A stretch of DNA of 55,002 nt. Source: a virus (taxonomy: Duplodnaviria; Caudoviricetes). Below are positions 31,441 to 38,510 of the stretch, in pieces. The position numbers were made by a program, and so were the translations under genes. Each line of letters starts with the position of its first letter. Position 1 is the first letter of the stretch. The stretch spans positions 1 through 55,002 of the IMG/VR virus record IMGVR_UViG_3300037245_001061; one strand, written 5' to 3'. Under the pieces are notes generated by a model. The model was given only the letters and a program-made list of their open reading frames with translations. It ran no database searches and was not told the DNA's origin.

Positions 31441-31497
31441 GGGTAAGACATACTGGTTGTTACATTTTTGATGATTAAATTTAATGGAGATATTATT

Positions 31498-31698
31498 ATG
31501 ATGTTGAGTGAGCAATTAAAGCAAGACCATGAGTGTGGCGACTTTGGTAAGGCGCTAGAGGGTTATGCCGAAAGAGCTGCAAAGCTTGAGCAGATAGTTG
31601 AAGCCGTGGCGCATATAGGTGTTGATTTTGGCTATGGAAGATTCGACCTTGATAAGGGTCATATTGCACAGGCGAAAGAGTTAACTAGTGACGCCTAA
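31498..31698 (+). CDS. Cassette hypothetical protein
   Basis: GGAG RBS; stop TAA is part of GCCTAAC. Confidence 0.65.
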   Translation: MMLSEQLKQDHECGDFGKALEGYAERAAKLEQIVEAVAHIGVDFGYGRFDLDKGHIAQAKELTSDA

Positions 31699-31778
31699 CC
31701 TAGAGACAAATTGCGGCACACCATAGCCGCAGGAAACAAACTAAACTTTAACCCGTCAATTTCGTTGGGTTGTTAACT
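31693..31778 (-). repeat. attC-like site 1 (bottom-like strand is +)
   Basis: GCCTAAC...ACAAATTGCGG...CCGTCAATTTCGT...GTTAACT. Confidence 0.7.
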
Positions 31779-31788
31779 GTTTTACGGA

Positions 31789-31974
31789 GTGGGATTTATG
31801 AGTAGTGGGCATAGCTGGGAATCACCAGAGCTAGAAAAATGTGAACTGTGTGGGGACAAAGACTACATGGCCGACAAGTTTTGCGGCGGAAACCTTGAAG
31901 TGGCTGAGCAGCGAAAAGAGTGGCTAGAAGGGTTGCGTGGCCAAGAGCATAGCGCCGCATGTGCTAACAGTTAA
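31789..31974 (+). CDS. Cassette hypothetical protein (Cys-containing)
   Basis: Between attC-like sites; ends ACAGTTAA|C. Confidence 0.6.
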   Translation: MGFMSSGHSWESPELEKCELCGDKDYMADKFCGGNLEVAEQRKEWLEGLRGQEHSAACANS

Positions 31975-32056
31975 CGCCTAACCCAAAGCTCAATTGTGAG
32001 CGAATCAACTTGCTTTGACTTTGCGCCAATTAAGACGTTTAGAATGATTGATTTAG

Positions 32057-32521
32057 TTGGTTTATAATGCTGGAGGTAATGACCGAATGACTTGTGGATG
32101 TGAAAATGAAGGCGGTGAGAGCTGCCATGCTGGCGAAGATTGCGCCGTAATTGAGAGAATTAATTCGTCTGTGGATTACGTAGCAGATTTAGAGAAGAAG
32201 ATGGTCTCCGAGGGGTTTAGGGTGCCGGGGAAGGACTTGAAAGACCAAGATGTATGCAGAGAACTACTGCGGGTAGTCGCTGCCTTCGCGCAGAGCGTCC
32301 CTTTGAATGATTGGTTAGCTGTGGAGGCTGAGATTATGACAGGACTACAGGAAGCAATGGACTTACTCTGTGAGGCTATGAGAGAAGAACGAAAACGGAT
32401 AAGCGAAGAACTTTATGAGATGCAAGGCACTGTGAGCCAGTTTGCAACATCAAAAGAATGTATTGCTTATAACCGAGCACTACGTGAGGCCGCAGAGAAA
32501 ATAATTGCTGGGGACAGCTAA
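32057..32521 (+). CDS. Chimeric ORF; real cassette gene probably 32336-32521
   Basis: Internal attC right half plus GGAGG RBS (32292-32334) precede ATG 32336. Confidence 0.45.
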   Translation: MVYNAGGNDRMTCGCENEGGESCHAGEDCAVIERINSSVDYVADLEKKMVSEGFRVPGKDLKDQDVCRELLRVVAAFAQSVPLNDWLAVEAEIMTGLQEAMDLLCEAMREERKRISEELYEMQGTVSQFATSKECIAYNRALREAAEKIIAGDS

Positions 32522-32576
32522 CCATTAGGTAATTTGACGTAGCGAAGCGGAGGTCATTTTGATTAATTTGTTAAGT
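32516..32576 (-). repeat. attC-like site 2
   Basis: AGCTAAC...GCGAAGC apex...GTTAAGT, 61 bp. Confidence 0.75.
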
Positions 32577-32771
32577 CTTTTGGGTCTAAAAAAGAAAGAG
32601 AAGCCCCCAAAGTGGAGACTGGTGCCAGATGAGGATGGTACATATACATTAGAGAAATGGGATGACTTAGTGGGCTATCTCTGTGAAACAGTAAGAGTAA
32701 CGCCAGAAGAGGCTGACAAACAAATTGAGAGGTTAGAGGGAAAAATCCTCTACTACAGAGAAGACAGCTAA
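32559..32771 (+). CDS. Cassette hypothetical protein (TTG start inside attC)
   Basis: GGAGG at 32549 and TTG at 32559 lie within site 2. Confidence 0.55.
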   Translation: MINLLSLLGLKKKEKPPKWRLVPDEDGTYTLEKWDDLVGYLCETVRVTPEEADKQIERLEGKILYYREDS

Positions 32772-32828
32772 CCGTTAGTTAATTTGTGAGGAATGAAATG
32801 ACGAATCAATTTGAACGACTTGTTATGC
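32766..32828 (-). repeat. attC-like site 3
   Basis: AGCTAAC..GTTAATTTG...CAATTTGAAC..GTTATGC; extra G on 3' arm. Confidence 0.8.
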
Positions 32829-33160
32829 GCCTGCTTCAAGTCACCGCTAAACATGATGACTACGCCCTATGGTGGAGGACTGACGGAGAATACGCGCCAG
32901 TTACATTCTTCATAAACTGCGACGACCTTTTCTTTTGGGCCTGTGCTGATTGTGAGGCGGTTACTGAAGAGAATATTTCAAACCTTGAGCAAGCTTATGA
33001 GGATGCAAAAGGTTGCTATGAGTATGGCTCTTGCTACGCACAATTATTGTTTTGCTGTCGGCAAAGAGGCATGAGGCCGCAACAGCCCTATTATAAAGAG
33101 CTGCCTGAACAAATGTGGGGCCTGTTCAACAAGTGTGGGCCAGAGAGAACTGACGCATAA
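32798..33160 (+). CDS. Cassette hypothetical protein (start inside attC)
   Basis: GAGGA RBS and ATG within site 3; C.D.F.WACAD.E and RGMRPQ..YY motifs recur in phage proteins. Confidence 0.7.
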   Translation: MTNQFERLVMRLLQVTAKHDDYALWWRTDGEYAPVTFFINCDDLFFWACADCEAVTEENISNLEQAYEDAKGCYEYGSCYAQLLFCCRQRGMRPQQPYYKELPEQMWGLFNKCGPERTDA

Positions 33161-33209
33161 CGGTTGCAAACACTGGCGAGCGCAGATAGATGAGTGGAAG
33201 GAATGATTT

Positions 33210-33440
33210 ATGGAATTGTTAAATGTGGAGGACGGTATAATGTGGGAAGATATTAAAGATGCACCTATTGGCACGGAGATGTTTGTCGTAAAGACATTTG
33301 GTGTGAGTAATGGACTTACAGGAGGGCAGACATACACCTCTGACCCTTGGTGTGTCTGGCAGCAAAAAGAAGGGGAGTTCTCAAGGTGGCCGCATAAGTT
33401 CCCGCCTACGCATTTCTTGAGGCTACCAACGAATGGATAG
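33210..33440 (+). CDS. Hypothetical protein (W..I..AP..T...PTH motif family)
   Basis: AAGGA RBS; follows a half attC starting at 33155. Confidence 0.65.
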   Translation: MELLNVEDGIMWEDIKDAPIGTEMFVVKTFGVSNGLTGGQTYTSDPWCVWQQKEGEFSRWPHKFPPTHFLRLPTNG

Positions 33441-37013: not shown

Positions 37014-37240
37014 ACATCCGAGACCTCTCCCTAGAGATGGAAGTCTCCTCCAAGGATAACCCCATGGTAACTTACTTCGTGGTATCCATAGGGGAGAGTA
37101 CTTGCACACTAGAGTGGAGGAATACTCTGAAGACTCTTGATGGTGTTGAGTATGTCGATGATGTGTACACTTATGAGGGGATATCCCCTGAGATACTAAG
37201 CCCTGTGGGGAATGAGAGACATGAACGATATGCTGATTAA
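37010..37240 (+). CDS. Hypothetical protein
   Basis: ATGA overlap with upstream gene. Confidence 0.5.
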   Translation: MNIRDLSLEMEVSSKDNPMVTYFVVSIGESTCTLEWRNTLKTLDGVEYVDDVYTYEGISPEILSPVGNERHERYAD

Positions 37241-37469
37241 ATTATTTACTATAGCCGCCAATATTAAGAAAGACGGATGGATAGTGATACCCCCATCCAA
37301 TCGAAAGTACACTGTGACATTGAGGGTGGAGTGGTTTTTAGATAAGAAATATGGATTTGAGCGCAGCTTTACAAGAACAGAGCTTGAGCAGACCAATATA
37401 GACCTTGCTGCAGTGTTTGTAGAAGAAGCTAATCATAATATTGATATGCAACTGAAGCAAAGCGCCTAA
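37212..37469 (+). CDS. Cassette hypothetical protein
   Basis: Ends GCCTAA|C at site 11. Confidence 0.55.
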   Translation: MRDMNDMLIKLFTIAANIKKDGWIVIPPSNRKYTVTLRVEWFLDKKYGFERSFTRTELEQTNIDLAAVFVEEANHNIDMQLKQSA

Positions 37470-37525
37470 CGCCTTAAACAAAAGCCGTAGCGAAGCGAAG
37501 GTCGCTTTGCTTTAAATTGTTATAC
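37464..37525 (-). repeat. attC-like site 11
   Basis: GCCTAAC..AAACAAAAGC..GCGAAGC..GCTTTGCTTT..GTTATAC. Confidence 0.8.
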
Positions 37526-37541
37526 GGCCACTAATTACGGA

Positions 37542-37841
37542 GTGAATGAAATGCTTGGCGAACTGAAAGAAGAGCATAAAACAATAGTTTCCCTTAAAAC
37601 AGAGACATATAAGAGGGGAAACAGTTTTGTGGCGGCCAAAGTGCTGACAACACTAAAAAGAAAGTCGACTGGCTTTGATATTTTAAACGGATCAGTAGCC
37701 GACGAGGTAGGGGATTTGCGGGATATTGAGGGTGTATATCTCTTGCCAGACGGTGAATATGAGCTTGTATATGCAAACCCTAGCCGTGACTGGGAGTCCG
37801 GGGTGTGGGAATTTGAGGGCTATGCACTGAAAGCCGTATAA
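37542..37841 (+). CDS. Cassette hypothetical protein
   Basis: GGAG RBS; DG.Y.L.....SRDWESG motif; ends GCCGTATAA. Confidence 0.7.
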   Translation: MNEMLGELKEEHKTIVSLKTETYKRGNSFVAAKVLTTLKRKSTGFDILNGSVADEVGDLRDIEGVYLLPDGEYELVYANPSRDWESGVWEFEGYALKAV

Positions 37842-37889
37842 TGCTGGAATTAATAAGCCTGAAAGGTCTTTTTCAATGATTTGTTATGT
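37836..37889 (-). repeat. attC-like site 12
   Basis: GTATAATGCTGGAATTAA..CCTGAAAGG..TTCAATGATTTGTTATGT. Confidence 0.75.
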
Positions 37890-37913
37890 GGGGATTTGAA
37901 ACAATGGTGATTT

Positions 37914-38156
37914 ATGATTGATGATGAAGATTTAGAAAAGCTGATACAAGAGAATAAAGACCAAGACATGCACTTTGTGGAGTACTTTAAGCATAAGTTC
38001 ACGTACCGCTTCACTGGAGTTGACGGTGTTAACTACTCTATCTGGTGCGGCGATACAGAAGGAGATATTTACCGTGATGGTTGGAGTGCAACTGAAAAGG
38101 TTGGCTGCTTAAGGGTGAATGGGTGCGTCCATTTTGCCTTGGCGAAAGACACATAA
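37914..38156 (+). CDS. Cassette hypothetical protein
   Basis: Ends CACATAA|C. Confidence 0.65.
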   Translation: MIDDEDLEKLIQENKDQDMHFVEYFKHKFTYRFTGVDGVNYSIWCGDTEGDIYRDGWSATEKVGCLRVNGCVHFALAKDT

Positions 38157-38205
38157 CGCTTGAATTAACGGGCGCGAGAGCGTCCCTTTGAATGATTGGT
38201 TAGCT
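38151..38205 (-). repeat. attC-like site 13 (clearest example)
   Basis: ACATAACGCTTGAATTAACGGGCGC-GAGA-GCGTCCCTTTGAATGATTGGTTAGCT; unpaired T and G on 3' arm. Confidence 0.9.
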
Positions 38206-38217
38206 GTGGAGGCTGAG

Positions 38218-38454
38218 ATGAGGACTATTTCTAGTAGTAACGGGGTGACCCTGGTGTTCCCTGATGACGAACTAGCCAAAGAGTACGCTGATAATTTAGA
38301 ACTACTACACATACAAACGTATAAGAAAATTAGAGATAAGTATGGGGTGTTTGCTGGAAACAATAATAAGTTTGTAGAAAGCAGGGAGAACTTGAGCGCG
38401 CACGACCCCCGATTTATGGAGAACCTGTACGACAGATATTACGATACAGAGTAG
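38218..38454 (+). CDS. Cassette hypothetical protein
   Basis: GGAGG RBS, ATG 38218; followed by ACAGCTAA. Confidence 0.6.
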   Translation: MRTISSSNGVTLVFPDDELAKEYADNLELLHIQTYKKIRDKYGVFAGNNNKFVESRENLSAHDPRFMENLYDRYYDTE

Positions 38455-38456
38455 AC

Positions 38457-38510
38457 AGCTAATACCAAGTTCAAGGGCGCACAGCGTCCCTTGTAACTCA
38501 AATGTTATAC
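38457..38510 (-). repeat. attC-like site 14
   Basis: AGCTAAT..GTTCAAGGGCGC-ACA-GCGTCCCTTGTAAC..GTTATAC; two unpaired T on 3' arm. Confidence 0.8.

Follow-up and report, generated by a model that had tools for sequence, protein, structure and literature searches.

An array of attC-type sites between small genes of a myovirus, with polarity reversed relative to the genes

Small plus-strand genes at 32.5 to 38.5 kb of a 55-kb myovirus record (the window, 55,002 nucleotides in full, a record about 60% complete) are separated by intergenic hairpins, which raises the question of whether these are integron-type attC sites and how they are oriented relative to the genes. By eye, 16 to 17 intergenic elements starting with TAAC or TAAT and ending with (T)TGTTA or GGTTA were read in positions 31,441 to 38,510. 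Plus-strand TTGTTA was concentrated in the array, with 14 of the 24 genome copies lying within 31,457 to 37,881. The hairpin array was confirmed by matches to three covariance models. The preliminary description had counted 14 hairpins of 52 to 132 bp; the models gave 12 well-supported sites and 2 weak ones, the supported sites measure 52 to 72 nt, and no 132-nt site was found. The array carries about 22 small cargo genes (31468 to 38454, plus strand, from the ORF list), mostly without known relatives.

The first model, R1, was built only from the top strands of 16 Vibrio anguillarum attCs (21 pairs, of which 8 show compensatory changes), and on other bacteria (1.05 Mb, E ≤ 1) all 16 of its attC matches fell on the expected strand. 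R2 was trained on 14 phage sites alone and R3 on 53 non-Vibrio bacterial attCs alone; the two are not wholly independent, since R1 served to fit the R2 alignment, and R2 to find and align the R3 training sites. E-values are rough because calibration was short. On the window, with filters off and E ≤ 10, R1 gave 14 matches, 10 of them in 32766-38510 and all of these on the minus strand. R3 also matched the array on the minus strand only, with 12 matches at sites read by eye (best 38.3 bits, E 2e-6) and one 9.9-bit match inside a gene (34435-34466). In return, R2 found 87 bacterial attC matches across 19 integron loci (1.09 Mb), and in no array was a match on the wrong strand: 58 on the minus strand upstream of intI, 8 on the plus strand downstream of intI (3 loci), 14 in L004, a Vibrio array, and 7 in L006, whose arrays are of class 1. 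The array sites are attC-type, as the preliminary description had proposed.

The sites, all on the minus strand in their attC orientation, are lettered d to q from left to right. Those supported by all three models, with scores for R1, R2, and R3 in turn, are e (32766-32828; 23.4 bits at E 7e-4, 40.8, and 25.0 bits), g (33494-33551; 14.7 and 39.1 bits, and 12.8 bits for 33505-33551), h (34058-34114; 16.1, 50.8, and 29.6 bits), i (34317-34386; 13.6, 34.9, and 14.8 bits), j (34670-34721; 11.2, 37.0, and 27.8 bits), m (35754-35807; 11.2, 26.6, and 24.3 bits), n (37464-37525; 21.4, 44.5, and 36.5 bits), o (37836-37889, starting with TAAT; 8.5, 26.7, and 20.4 bits), and p (38151-38205; 16.4, 37.6, and 38.3 bits), the last being the best R3 match of all. 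Site q (38457-38510), the right end of the variable array, was supported by R1 (9.7 bits) and R2 (40.0 bits), site l (35256-35327) by R2 (13.2 bits) and R3 (20.7 bits), and site d (32516-32576) by R2 only (19.4 bits), with no R1 or R3 match. The R2 scores of d, l, and o come from outside the R2 training set, and those of the other sites from members of it. Two further sites were matched weakly and by R3 only, namely, site f (33155-33224; 11.9 bits, E 2.3), also seen by eye, and half-site k (34930-34975), read by eye as a TAAC end and a left arm only, whose R3 match (15.3 bits for 34930-35061) borrows TTGTTAT from within the next gene. Sites j, m, and o match the models mainly through their R boxes, and j and m form one subfamily with R boxes present and no clear L-box pairing. 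Site e shares two motifs with Vibrio attCs, GATTC and CTCAC, and its loop contains the ribosome-binding site and ATG (at 32799) of the downstream gene. The first three elements read by eye (31441, 31693, and 31969) had no support from any model; the second (31693-31778) and third (31969-32066) are longer intergenic elements whose ends are TAAC and TTGTTAA-like, and for these no R1, R2, or R3 match was found at E ≤ 10.

The phage sites also keep the attC helices. In their alignment, 88.4% of cells were paired, compared to 68.3% in shuffles, 12 pairs showed compensatory changes, and the covariation score was 0.195, compared to 0.053 in shuffled alignments and at most 0.035 with the partners slid. 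That the sites are chance palindromes, or ordinary intrinsic terminators with no relation to attC, is an extremely improbable explanation: it would suit the modest single R1 scores (8.5 to 23.4 bits) and the lack of a consensus fold when eight short sites were passed through plain MAFFT and RNAalifold, but 10 of the 14 R1 matches lie within 5.7 kb on one strand, R3 reaches 38 bits, and the detection of bacterial attCs is reciprocal.

The orientation of the sites was compared with that of the genes. The longest ORF was on the plus strand in 16 of 16 inter-site intervals, each ending at a site, and plus-strand domain matches were obtained for ORF 34403-34675 (DUF7352, 77.5 bits, and phrog_3848) and ORF 36548-36847 (phrog_2169); the coding strand of the array is therefore the plus strand. 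PHROG matches were absent for the remaining 21 of the 23 array ORFs scanned. Phage genes flanking the array point the same way as its own genes, and so does the GC skew. The preliminary description had expected covariance models to match opposite to the ORFs, and every array match was indeed on the minus strand, so that the gene-sense strand corresponds to the recombinogenic bottom strand of attC. The attC polarity is reversed relative to the phage genes. A further site in the leftward gene block (27786-27852, plus strand; R1 16.4 bits, R2 38.4 bits as a training member, R3 12.6 bits) lies among genes on the minus strand and is thus antisense to its genes too, and a weak attC-like site with a start codon inside (28118-28186, plus strand; R2 12.4 bits, E 5.5) resembles a site at 2176-2243 of the metagenome contig L088.

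An ordinary array of normal polarity, with minus-strand genes or as a piece of a chromosomal integron captured by or misassembled into a phage contig, would fit the resemblance of the sites to Vibrio- and Pseudoalteromonas-type attCs and the chromosomal-integron fragments known in V. anguillarum phages, as described in passages of PMC9892861. It is nevertheless very improbable given the plus-strand ORFs and domain matches and the shared direction of flanking genes and GC skew. No array ORF matched the fetched integron loci, the same flanks or sites recur in three metagenome contigs and in contigs of four further runs, and the leftward block is antisense as well, on the opposite absolute strand.

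The reversed layout recurs in several unrelated phages. Among 74 bacterial sites, an ORF of at least 40 amino acids ending at the 5' end of the site was found on the top strand only in 46, on the bottom strand only in 4, on both in 12, and on neither in 12; among 54 viral sites, the corresponding numbers were 3, 32, 10, and 9. The layout is seen in the published phage attC clusters of H101/PH101 and MW202573 and in other viral contigs. In H101/PH101, the sites are of one sequence family with those of the window and lie antisense to the annotated genes.

In 12 of the 14 sites, the TAA at the site start is the stop codon of the upstream plus-strand ORF and stands directly 5' of the predicted crossover (TAA|C), in agreement with the earlier observation that sites usually begin at the upstream stop codon. 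Examples are site d, whose TAA (32519-32521) ends ORF 32057-32521, and site f, whose TAA (33158-33160) ends ORF 32786-33160. The exceptions are sites g (33494), where the upstream ORF stops 54 nt ahead of the site, and q (38457). The stop codon thus sits at the predicted crossover. Constrained single-stranded DNA folds of the plus strand were heterogeneous: of 12 sites, 6 showed an excess of unpaired bases on the 3' arm, 2 an excess on the 5' arm, and 1 no difference, and 3 gave branched folds. The preliminary description had placed the unpaired bases of five hand-folded sites on the 3' arm, which was mostly so at 34058, 34317, 38151, and 38457, while 32766 was branched. In the fold of site 34058, single-base bulges lie at 16, 20, and 24 from the 3' end; in the consulted part of Bouvier 2009 (PMC2727003), the extrahelical bases of the VCR bottom strand of Vibrio cholerae are G16, T20, and T24. 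GCGAAGC, reported earlier for three sites, was located in the loops of d (32542), h (34082, where it forms the loop), and n (37490), and once inside a gene (33891); the count of 4 was not in itself above chance, being reached in 19 of 100 shuffles.

Shuffling of accessory genes, proposed in the preliminary description together with a comparison of cassette order in related phages, received comparative support. Three metagenome contigs (L088-L090) share 87% amino acid identity in a 454-aa flank gene and 88 to 97% nucleotide identity in the flanks, and they carry other genes between sites of the same type; the stretch between the conserved flanks is hypervariable in its genes from one close relative to another. 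Homology with L090 resumes at 38460, in the TAAT of site q. In contigs from four other runs, single sites occur with unrelated flanks, as does site j alone in run X7 and site m in run X8. Units of a site plus its downstream gene ending at the next TAA|C were found in run contigs at 34672-34937, 34061-34323, and 38166-38466. A match to a run X8 contig ends at 34937 (half-site k), matches to contigs of runs X3 and X7 begin at 38153 (site p), and run X3 contigs break at 38460 and 38466 (site q). The run data are contigs and not reads, with 24 of 89 loose ends and 29 of 142 pieces among the matches listed, and no recombination event was directly observed in the contig comparisons. Other joints lie off the predicted crossover: a second occurrence of site p's 3' half with its leader (32292-32340, plus strand; repeat D4, 96% identical to 38177-38225) inside ORF 32057-32521, which is probably a fusion from irregular recombination, a mid-gene joint (32483>35047), and a mid-site joint (32555>33534, run X2). 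Whole genes were also deleted away from sites (36549>36829 and 36547>37010).

These joints and site-free deletions speak for an alternative in which the sites are attC-derived or attC-like, no longer serve an integrase, and act as intergenic hairpins with a regulatory role (as weak terminators, as signals for RNA processing or stability, or by carrying ribosome-binding sites) and, like PeSLs, as dispersed repeats for ordinary homologous or illegitimate recombination. It would also account for a conservation of linear blocks that exceeds the needs of pairing and reaches both leader and ribosome-binding site (seen in repeats D1, D5, D7, and D12), and for terminator-like hairpins enriched in 29 to 41 kb (23 compared to 7.6 expected), three of which coincide with sites j, m, and n. 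The heterogeneous plus-strand folds count against exchange by attC recombination. No tyrosine recombinase or integron integrase was found in this record (about 60% complete), and none in five other attC-bearing viral records, including the complete H101/PH101 and MW202573 genomes. Against the alternative, the R boxes, spacing, compensatory L-box pairing, and polarity are all kept, R2 finds the 87 bacterial attCs, and several homology breaks coincide with the crossover point (A|C) predicted for the left site end. The H101/PH101 sites, of the same family, are IntI1 substrates according to passages of PMC9892861. The promoter half of a PeSL is missing, since the sites contain no sigma-70 consensus and promoter-like matches are not enriched (21 compared to 22.3 expected). 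On balance, we consider this alternative unlikely.

We give a probability of about 0.68 to the whole reading, that is, a cluster of genuine attC sites lacking a nearby integrase (a CALIN) and forming a mirror-image cassette array in the early or accessory region of a marine myovirus, with exchange by a putative host integrase. As no integrase was found in this or the five other viral records, the enzyme is hypothetical here. The hairpin-forming recombinogenic bottom strand is the gene-sense strand, so that the predicted mobile unit comprises C, the attC body, the ribosome-binding site, the gene, and TAA. The gene-sense strand may be exposed when it serves as lagging-strand template or, during transcription, as non-template strand, and once folded it would be acted on by an integron integrase from the host, which is probably a marine gammaproteobacterium. 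Excision and insertion of attC-plus-gene units by this enzyme could then exchange accessory genes among related phages. Given the reversed polarity, a captured bacterial cassette would be expected to lie antisense to the local promoter and be silent, and a phage cassette in a bacterial integron would likewise be antisense and silent.

Clusters of attC sites in phages have already been published. According to passages of PMC9892861 (2023, Front Microbiol), they resemble the window in having attCs between small genes of phages without an integrase, and in the laboratory two PH101 attC sites served as IntI1 substrates for recombination into attI1, with the bottom strands outperforming the top strands. 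They are described there with as few as 2 sites, and 3 in TJE1, compared to 12 to 14 in 6 kb of the window. The antisense position of the attC top strand in PH101 and MW202573 comes from the present analysis; the searched passages of that paper make no mention of it and contain no comparison among related phages, and systematic reversed polarity is not mentioned in the searched literature text as a whole. In T4-type phages, PeSLs are repeated intergenic promoter and stem-loop motifs that bound shuffled modules in hypervariable regions (passages of PMC2839356 and PMC4122927). By that description they are composite promoter-terminator motifs, whereas the sites of the window lack a sigma-70 consensus and match attC models.

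The sedentary chromosomal integrons of Vibrionales and Alteromonadales (VCR-type) have the R''/R' boxes, spacers, and L boxes in common with the sites of the window, and there, too, sites separate single small genes of unknown function. Bacterial arrays adjoin intI and attI, with ORFs on the attC top strand and sites of about 126 nt, whereas the phage array has neither intI nor attI, its ORFs lie on the bottom strand, and its sites are 52 to 72 nt with short loops. Inverted cassettes, such as toxin-antitoxin cassettes with their own promoters, occur in bacterial integrons and likewise have an ORF that runs antisense to the attC top strand. There they are isolated exceptions in a co-oriented array (4 of the 74 control sites), whereas in the window and in the other phages entire arrays are reversed.

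On the plus strand of the marine myovirus record, the elements between small open reading frames (ORFs), as read from the sequence, start with TAAC or TAAT and finish with (T)TGTTA or GGTTA, and 14 of the 24 genome copies of TTGTTA lie within 31,457-37,881. The GCGAAGC motif pointed out in the preliminary description is present in the loops of three sites, with a total genome count of four, which is not above chance. Reference arrays for covariance modeling were real integron arrays with an orientation fixed by their integrase gene, namely, a Vibrio anguillarum array on phage Va_90-11-286_p16 (L004; intIA on the minus strand, cassettes on the plus strand), the Shewanella M16-3 integron (L007), and a class 1 array in a P1 phage-plasmid (L006), and eighty further genome loci were retrieved with an alignment of the three integrases. 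The first model (R1) was trained on 16 Vibrio attC top strands and has a consensus fold of 21 pairs, eight of them with compensatory changes. As a control, all 16 of its matches to other species' and class 1 attCs (E ≤ 1 in 1.05 Mb) were on the expected strand, the class 1 sites scoring 16.9 to 23.7 bits for comparison. With filters off, R1 gave 14 matches in the window at E ≤ 10. Ten lie within 32766-38510, each spanning one element end to end, all on the minus strand and with 8.5 to 23.4 bits. Another attC-type site, at 27786-27852 on the plus strand (16.4 bits), lies within the leftward gene block and is therefore again antisense to its own genes; the remaining three matches are weak and scattered. 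The alignments show a resemblance to Vibrio-type sites not only of structure but also of sequence: in minus-strand orientation, the sites open with TAACAA and close with GCGTTA, as in that type, and the site at 32766 retains its GATTC and CTCAC motifs.

In the reciprocal test, a model trained on only 14 phage sites read on the minus-type strand (R2) gave 87 matches in 1.09 Mb of integron loci, none of them on the wrong strand of an array. Of these, 58 lay upstream of intI on the minus strand, spread over 16 loci that include Pseudoalteromonas, Shewanella, Marinobacter, Motiliproteus, Ectopseudomonas, Citrobacter, and a Chloroflexia MAG; eight lay downstream of intI on the plus strand, in three loci whose arrays are apparently co-oriented with it; 14 were in the Vibrio array and seven in class 1 arrays. 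With default filters and E ≤ 10, R2 had no match in 62 of the 81 IntI loci (L007-L087). Three bacterial loci, from MAGs whose titles indicate an Acidobacteriota type, had attC matches downstream of intI on the same strand (L028, 14452-20714; L056, 11857-14693; L019, 4596-4665), the arrays being co-oriented with the integrase gene and not divergent from it.

The third model (R3), trained on only 53 bacterial non-Vibrio attCs, matched the window array on the minus strand only, with twelve matches at sites recognized by eye (11.9 to 38.3 bits), the best at 38151-38205 (38.3 bits, E = 2e-6). One 9.9-bit match inside a gene of the array was taken as noise. Outside the array, weak matches on both strands at 26165-26193 (11.1 and 9.1 bits), within a leftward gene, probably reflect a chance palindrome. 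The models are our own, not those of IntegronFinder; their E values are rough, coming from a short calibration, and they are not fully independent, as the R2 alignment was derived from R1 and the R3 members were found with R2. By-eye elements at 31441, 31693, and 31969 were unsupported by all three. Searched on both strands, the array matched our models on the minus strand only, opposite to the ORFs, as the preliminary description had expected. With 12 to 14 sites in 6 kb, the array region is classed as a CALIN (a cluster of at least two close attC sites with no nearby intI) made up of true attC-type sites.

The attC core boxes are the inverted R'' (RYYYAAC) and R' (GTTRRRY) at the ends, 50 to 150 nt apart, and the site is an imperfect palindrome with L''/L' boxes, its structure conserved more than its sequence. 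All 12 solid phage sites open with TAAC or TAAT and close with GTTA plus 3 nt on the plus strand, and at 12 of the 14 model-supported sites this TAA also terminates the upstream ORF. In an alignment fitted to model R1, the source of all pairing figures for the phage sites, 98% of cells in the R-box helix and 86.6% in the L-box helix are paired, with compensatory changes in 8 of 10 L pairs; sites j (34670-34721), m (35754-35807), and o (37836-37889) show little L pairing. Overall, 88.4% of cells were paired in that alignment, compared to 68.3% in shuffles, compensatory changes occurred in twelve pairs, and slid-partner controls collapsed.

Extrahelical bases on the R''-L'' arm of the attC bottom strand set polarity, and unpaired bases had been placed earlier on the 3' arm of the coding strand. 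This held for part of the sites: plus-strand folds at 34058 and 38457 are classical (R-box stem, internal loop, and a stem with single-base 3'-arm bulges) and at 34317 and 38151 the unpaired bases are more numerous on the 3' arm, but at 35754 and 37464 the 5' arm is favored, and the folds of three sites are branched. Unconstrained single-stranded DNA folds gave modest central hairpins only, and MAFFT with RNAalifold returned no consensus structure for eight short sites. The model alignments place an extra base on the minus-strand 5' arm in most sites. Bulges in the plus-strand fold at 34058 are at positions 16 (G), 20, and 24 from the 3' end, the folds of the other sites being mutually discordant, and a G occupies position 16 from the plus-strand 3' end in 5 of 12 sites. 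Passages of Bouvier et al. (2009; PMC2727003) describe the G in L'' as unpartnered and give extrahelical G16, T20, and T24 for the VCR bottom strand. Since the thermodynamic folds were mixed and the eight-site alignment lacked a consensus, folding alone would not have settled the attC question.

The window is an entire IMG/VR virus record of 55,002 bases with a completeness rating of about 60%, and it encodes a large terminase, portal, major head protein, tail sheath, tape measure, and both ribonucleotide reductase (RNR) subunits. The closest named phages are distantly related marine myoviruses, with terminase identities of 50% (Rheinheimera phage Barba19A) and 43% (Alteromonas phage PT11-V22). 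The RNR small subunit shares 68% identity with its counterpart on a 92,760-base contig. Genes run leftward until about 29 kb and rightward beyond, the GC skew switches at the same point, and strong promoter-like sites (TTGACA-type matches) are located at 29,096 and 29,670. Three tRNA genes were found, two on the minus strand (18309-18382 and 18393-18465) and one on the plus strand (29163-29236), the third where the two early gene blocks diverge, next to these promoter matches and the skew switch. In Rfam, only the three tRNAs passed the gathering threshold, and 31-39 kb gave no relevant match at E ≤ 10. The array lies in the rightward block, immediately after a 454-amino-acid gene (30076-31440). 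From its end to the RNR genes (40441-43144) the distance is about 2 kb; in Pseudoalteromonas phage H101 (NC_029094, 75.9-80.5 kb), no more than about 1.3 kb separates an attC cluster from the RNR beta-subunit gene, a similar neighborhood although the phages are only distantly related. No similarity to the array DNA was found in 50,697 phage records, and IMG/VR searches gave neither a relative of the 454-amino-acid flank protein nor an exact match to a 20-nt motif from sites j and m. Three relatives found via the RNR small subunit (L001, L002, and L003) showed no enrichment of the end motifs.

The longest ORF is on the plus strand in all 16 inter-site intervals, and the flanking phage genes and GC skew agree with plus as the coding strand. 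With genes on plus and attC matches on minus, the gene-sense strand is the attC bottom strand, which upholds the inverted polarity claimed from the sequence. A canonical integron cassette array, in which ORFs lie on the attC top strand and can thereby be expressed from the promoter next to attI, was rejected, the sites being on minus and the genes on plus. In gene sense, the unit consists of C, attC, leader, gene, and TAA, with the predicted crossover directly after the upstream stop codon (TAA|C). When sites were classified by the strand on which an ORF of at least 40 amino acids ends at the site 5' end, the 12 window sites were 0 top-only, 10 bottom-only, 1 both, and 1 neither. Among the 23 array ORFs, PHROGs and Pfam matches above threshold were obtained only for two on the plus strand, 34403-34675 (Pfam DUF7352, 77.5 bits; phrog_3848) and 36548-36847 (phrog_2169), and tblastn and tblastx of the array against all integron loci fetched gave no match.

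In one site subtype, the downstream gene has its ribosome-binding site, complementary to the conserved CTCAC, and its start codon within the site. This subtype is represented in the window at 32766-32828, 27786-27852, and 28118-28186, in a metagenome contig of a close relative (L088) at 2176-2243, and in phage record MW202573 at 2619-2703, the 3' arm encoding the first codons of unrelated genes. The same site motif is read in different frames in different genes, which points to conservation of DNA and not of peptide. A 58-nt direct repeat, 90% identical, was observed at 33557-33614 and 35482-35539, the latter copy being the start of gene 35490-35759. The copy at 33557-33614 is a truncated start of that gene, placed after site g (33494-33551) and running into a stop, and is the remnant of a replaced cassette gene.

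Cassette order had been proposed for comparison among related phages. On three metagenome contigs of close relatives (L088-L090), the 454-amino-acid gene is present at 87% amino-acid identity and the flanks at 88 to 97% nucleotide identity, whereas the array is different. L090 carries about eight other small ORFs, counted by eye, which are separated by six R2 matches, all on one strand, with one further site added by R3; from the TAAT of site q (38460) onward it is again homologous to the window. In L088, pieces of the window are arranged in a different order. Parts of the array were detected in 24 runs from 21 studies, with 95% of words in one, 34% in another, and 5 to 19% in the rest. Contigs, not reads, of four of these runs (X2, X3, X7, and X8) were compared with the window, and uncovered parts were not counted as evidence. 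Among the matches listed, sites e (32766-32828), j, m, and p (38151-38205) each occur alone amid unrelated flanks, and for sites j, p, and q (38457-38510) there are matches that start at the left end. Also among them, units of a site and its downstream gene end at the next TAA|C (34672-34937 in X8, 34061-34323 in X2, and 38166-38466 in X3), as predicted for a gene-sense A|C crossover and in agreement with the earlier proposal that each attC heads the downstream gene; a normal-polarity array would move a gene with its downstream site instead. In two runs, the block from gene 36348 onward directly follows a q-type site.

Contrary to a purely integrase-driven picture, there is a half-site copy within ORF 32057-32521, a mid-gene joint (32483>35047) in L088 and X7, a mid-site joint in X2, and whole-gene deletions at the site-free 36.5-37.0 kb. 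ORF 32057-32521 (154 amino acids) reads through 32292-32340, a copy of the site p 3' half and leader, and L088 has only the portion from about 32346, with its own start before it; on both grounds, the ORF appears to have arisen from two genes fused across a broken site. The region 36308-37469 consists of six tightly packed genes with no intervening site. In other runs, deletions of one or two genes fall exactly at gene borders there (36549>36829 and 36547>37010, among the matches listed), so gene-level exchange also occurs without attC sites.

Clusters of attC sites in 17 phages are reported in main-text passages of Qi et al. (2023; PMC9892861), according to which IntI1 recombines attI1 with two TJE1 sites, two PH101 sites, and one P12002L site, bottom strands in the designation of that paper performing better than top strands. 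The same passages discuss such clusters as a route for moving bacterial cassettes, and those searched do not mention an antisense relation of attC and genes. On the published records, R2 located four sites in H101/PH101 (75.9-78.0 kb) on the plus strand, all annotated genes there being on minus, and two sites in MW202573 on the minus strand, with genes on plus. The H101/PH101 site sequences resemble those of the window and belong to the same family. A further property of attC sites is strand-specific recombination by an integron integrase, with the crossover in R'; for the window sites, the recombination of two H101/PH101 family members with attI1 and the homology breaks at TAA|C bear on it indirectly. 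In TJE1, two sites were matched on the same strand as the genes, and R2 had no match in Polaribacter phage P12002L. Matches were likewise absent from PT11-V22 (G001), genome G002, and Barba19A; genome G003 had two and Pseudoalteromonas phage J2-1 four weak ones.

IMG/VR was scanned with a 15-nt site motif, followed by R2 on the loci. The motif hits were mostly chance, about 16 of the 80 loci listed having an R2 match (E ≤ 1) and six having two or more. Arrays of four to seven attC matches occur on three unrelated viral contigs, after a helicase/methyltransferase gene in L109 (8428-10155), between a clamp-like gene and the terminase in L136 (8041-10896), and in L157 (6379-7751). On these contigs, bottom-like-strand ORFs finish a few bases inside each site's bottom-strand 5' end. 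The ORF-end test classified 74 sites of 15 bacterial arrays as 46 top-only, 4 bottom-only, 12 both, and 12 neither, and 54 viral-record sites as 3, 32, 10, and 9, respectively, the viral sample being small, with 22 sites from the window's own lineage and part of it found via the site motif. The reversed layout is not peculiar to the window phage and occurs in several phage lineages.

A genome search for an IntI-type tyrosine recombinase, proposed together with a host enzyme working in trans, gave no match to PF00589 or TIGR02249 in the 55-kb window; as the record is only about 60% complete, an intI may lie elsewhere in the phage genome. PF00589 had no match in the complete H101/PH101, the complete MW202573, or three IMG/VR records, one of them 92% complete. 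Given its absence from these viral records, a host integrase supplied in trans is the natural reading, and a host integron integrase would then act on the phage sites. Loot et al. (2017; PMC5371416) showed that attC folding depends on how the array is oriented with respect to replication, since this decides whether the leading- or the lagging-strand template carries the recombinogenic strand. Should phage genes and replication forks run in the same direction, the gene-sense bottom strand would come to lie on the lagging-strand template, and the reversed polarity may have a replication-linked reason. At about 29 kb, site polarity changes along with gene direction, which is consistent with this idea and, to the same degree, with a link to transcription.

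Our most far-reaching interpretation, held at a probability of about 0.45, is that several unrelated phage lineages keep their own mirror-image cassette pool, with attC preceding the gene and the recombinogenic strand being gene-sense, which is exchanged by the host integron integrase. The reversal would be functional, exposing the folding strand in a fast-replicating, heavily transcribed genome and keeping the phage and bacterial pools mutually silent despite a common enzyme. Integrons are regarded as a bacterial device; were this reading true, the integron system would have a second, viral user, and orphan early genes, possibly with counter-defense roles, would be its cargo. A large array reversed throughout, the reversal in other phages, and the cassette-wise differences would together suggest that phages maintain a separate cassette economy with an enzyme borrowed from the host. 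This would supply a concrete mechanism by which the well-known mosaic "ORFan" regions in phage genomes arise and give the attC polarity rules of strand choice and replication side a new setting.

The nearest phage analogue is the PeSL (promoter-early stem-loop) of T4-type phages, compared here by its brief description in passages of PMC2839356 and PMC4122927 as a conserved early promoter joined to a stem-loop. The promoter half is absent from the window sites, and promoter-like matches are not enriched (21 versus 22.3 expected), on which grounds an identity with PeSL was rejected. At most two of the listed promoter matches touch a site, one at 33534-33563 over the 3' end of site g and one at 37813-37842 with its -10 hexamer over the start of site o. 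The literature search for attC sites in phages found only Qi et al. (2023; PMC9892861), and a preprint on integrons as anti-phage defense banks does not treat phage arrays. Relative to known CALINs, the array is new in being large, wholly reversed with respect to its genes, and variable cassette by cassette among relatives, and it exemplifies a reversal that recurs across several phage lineages.
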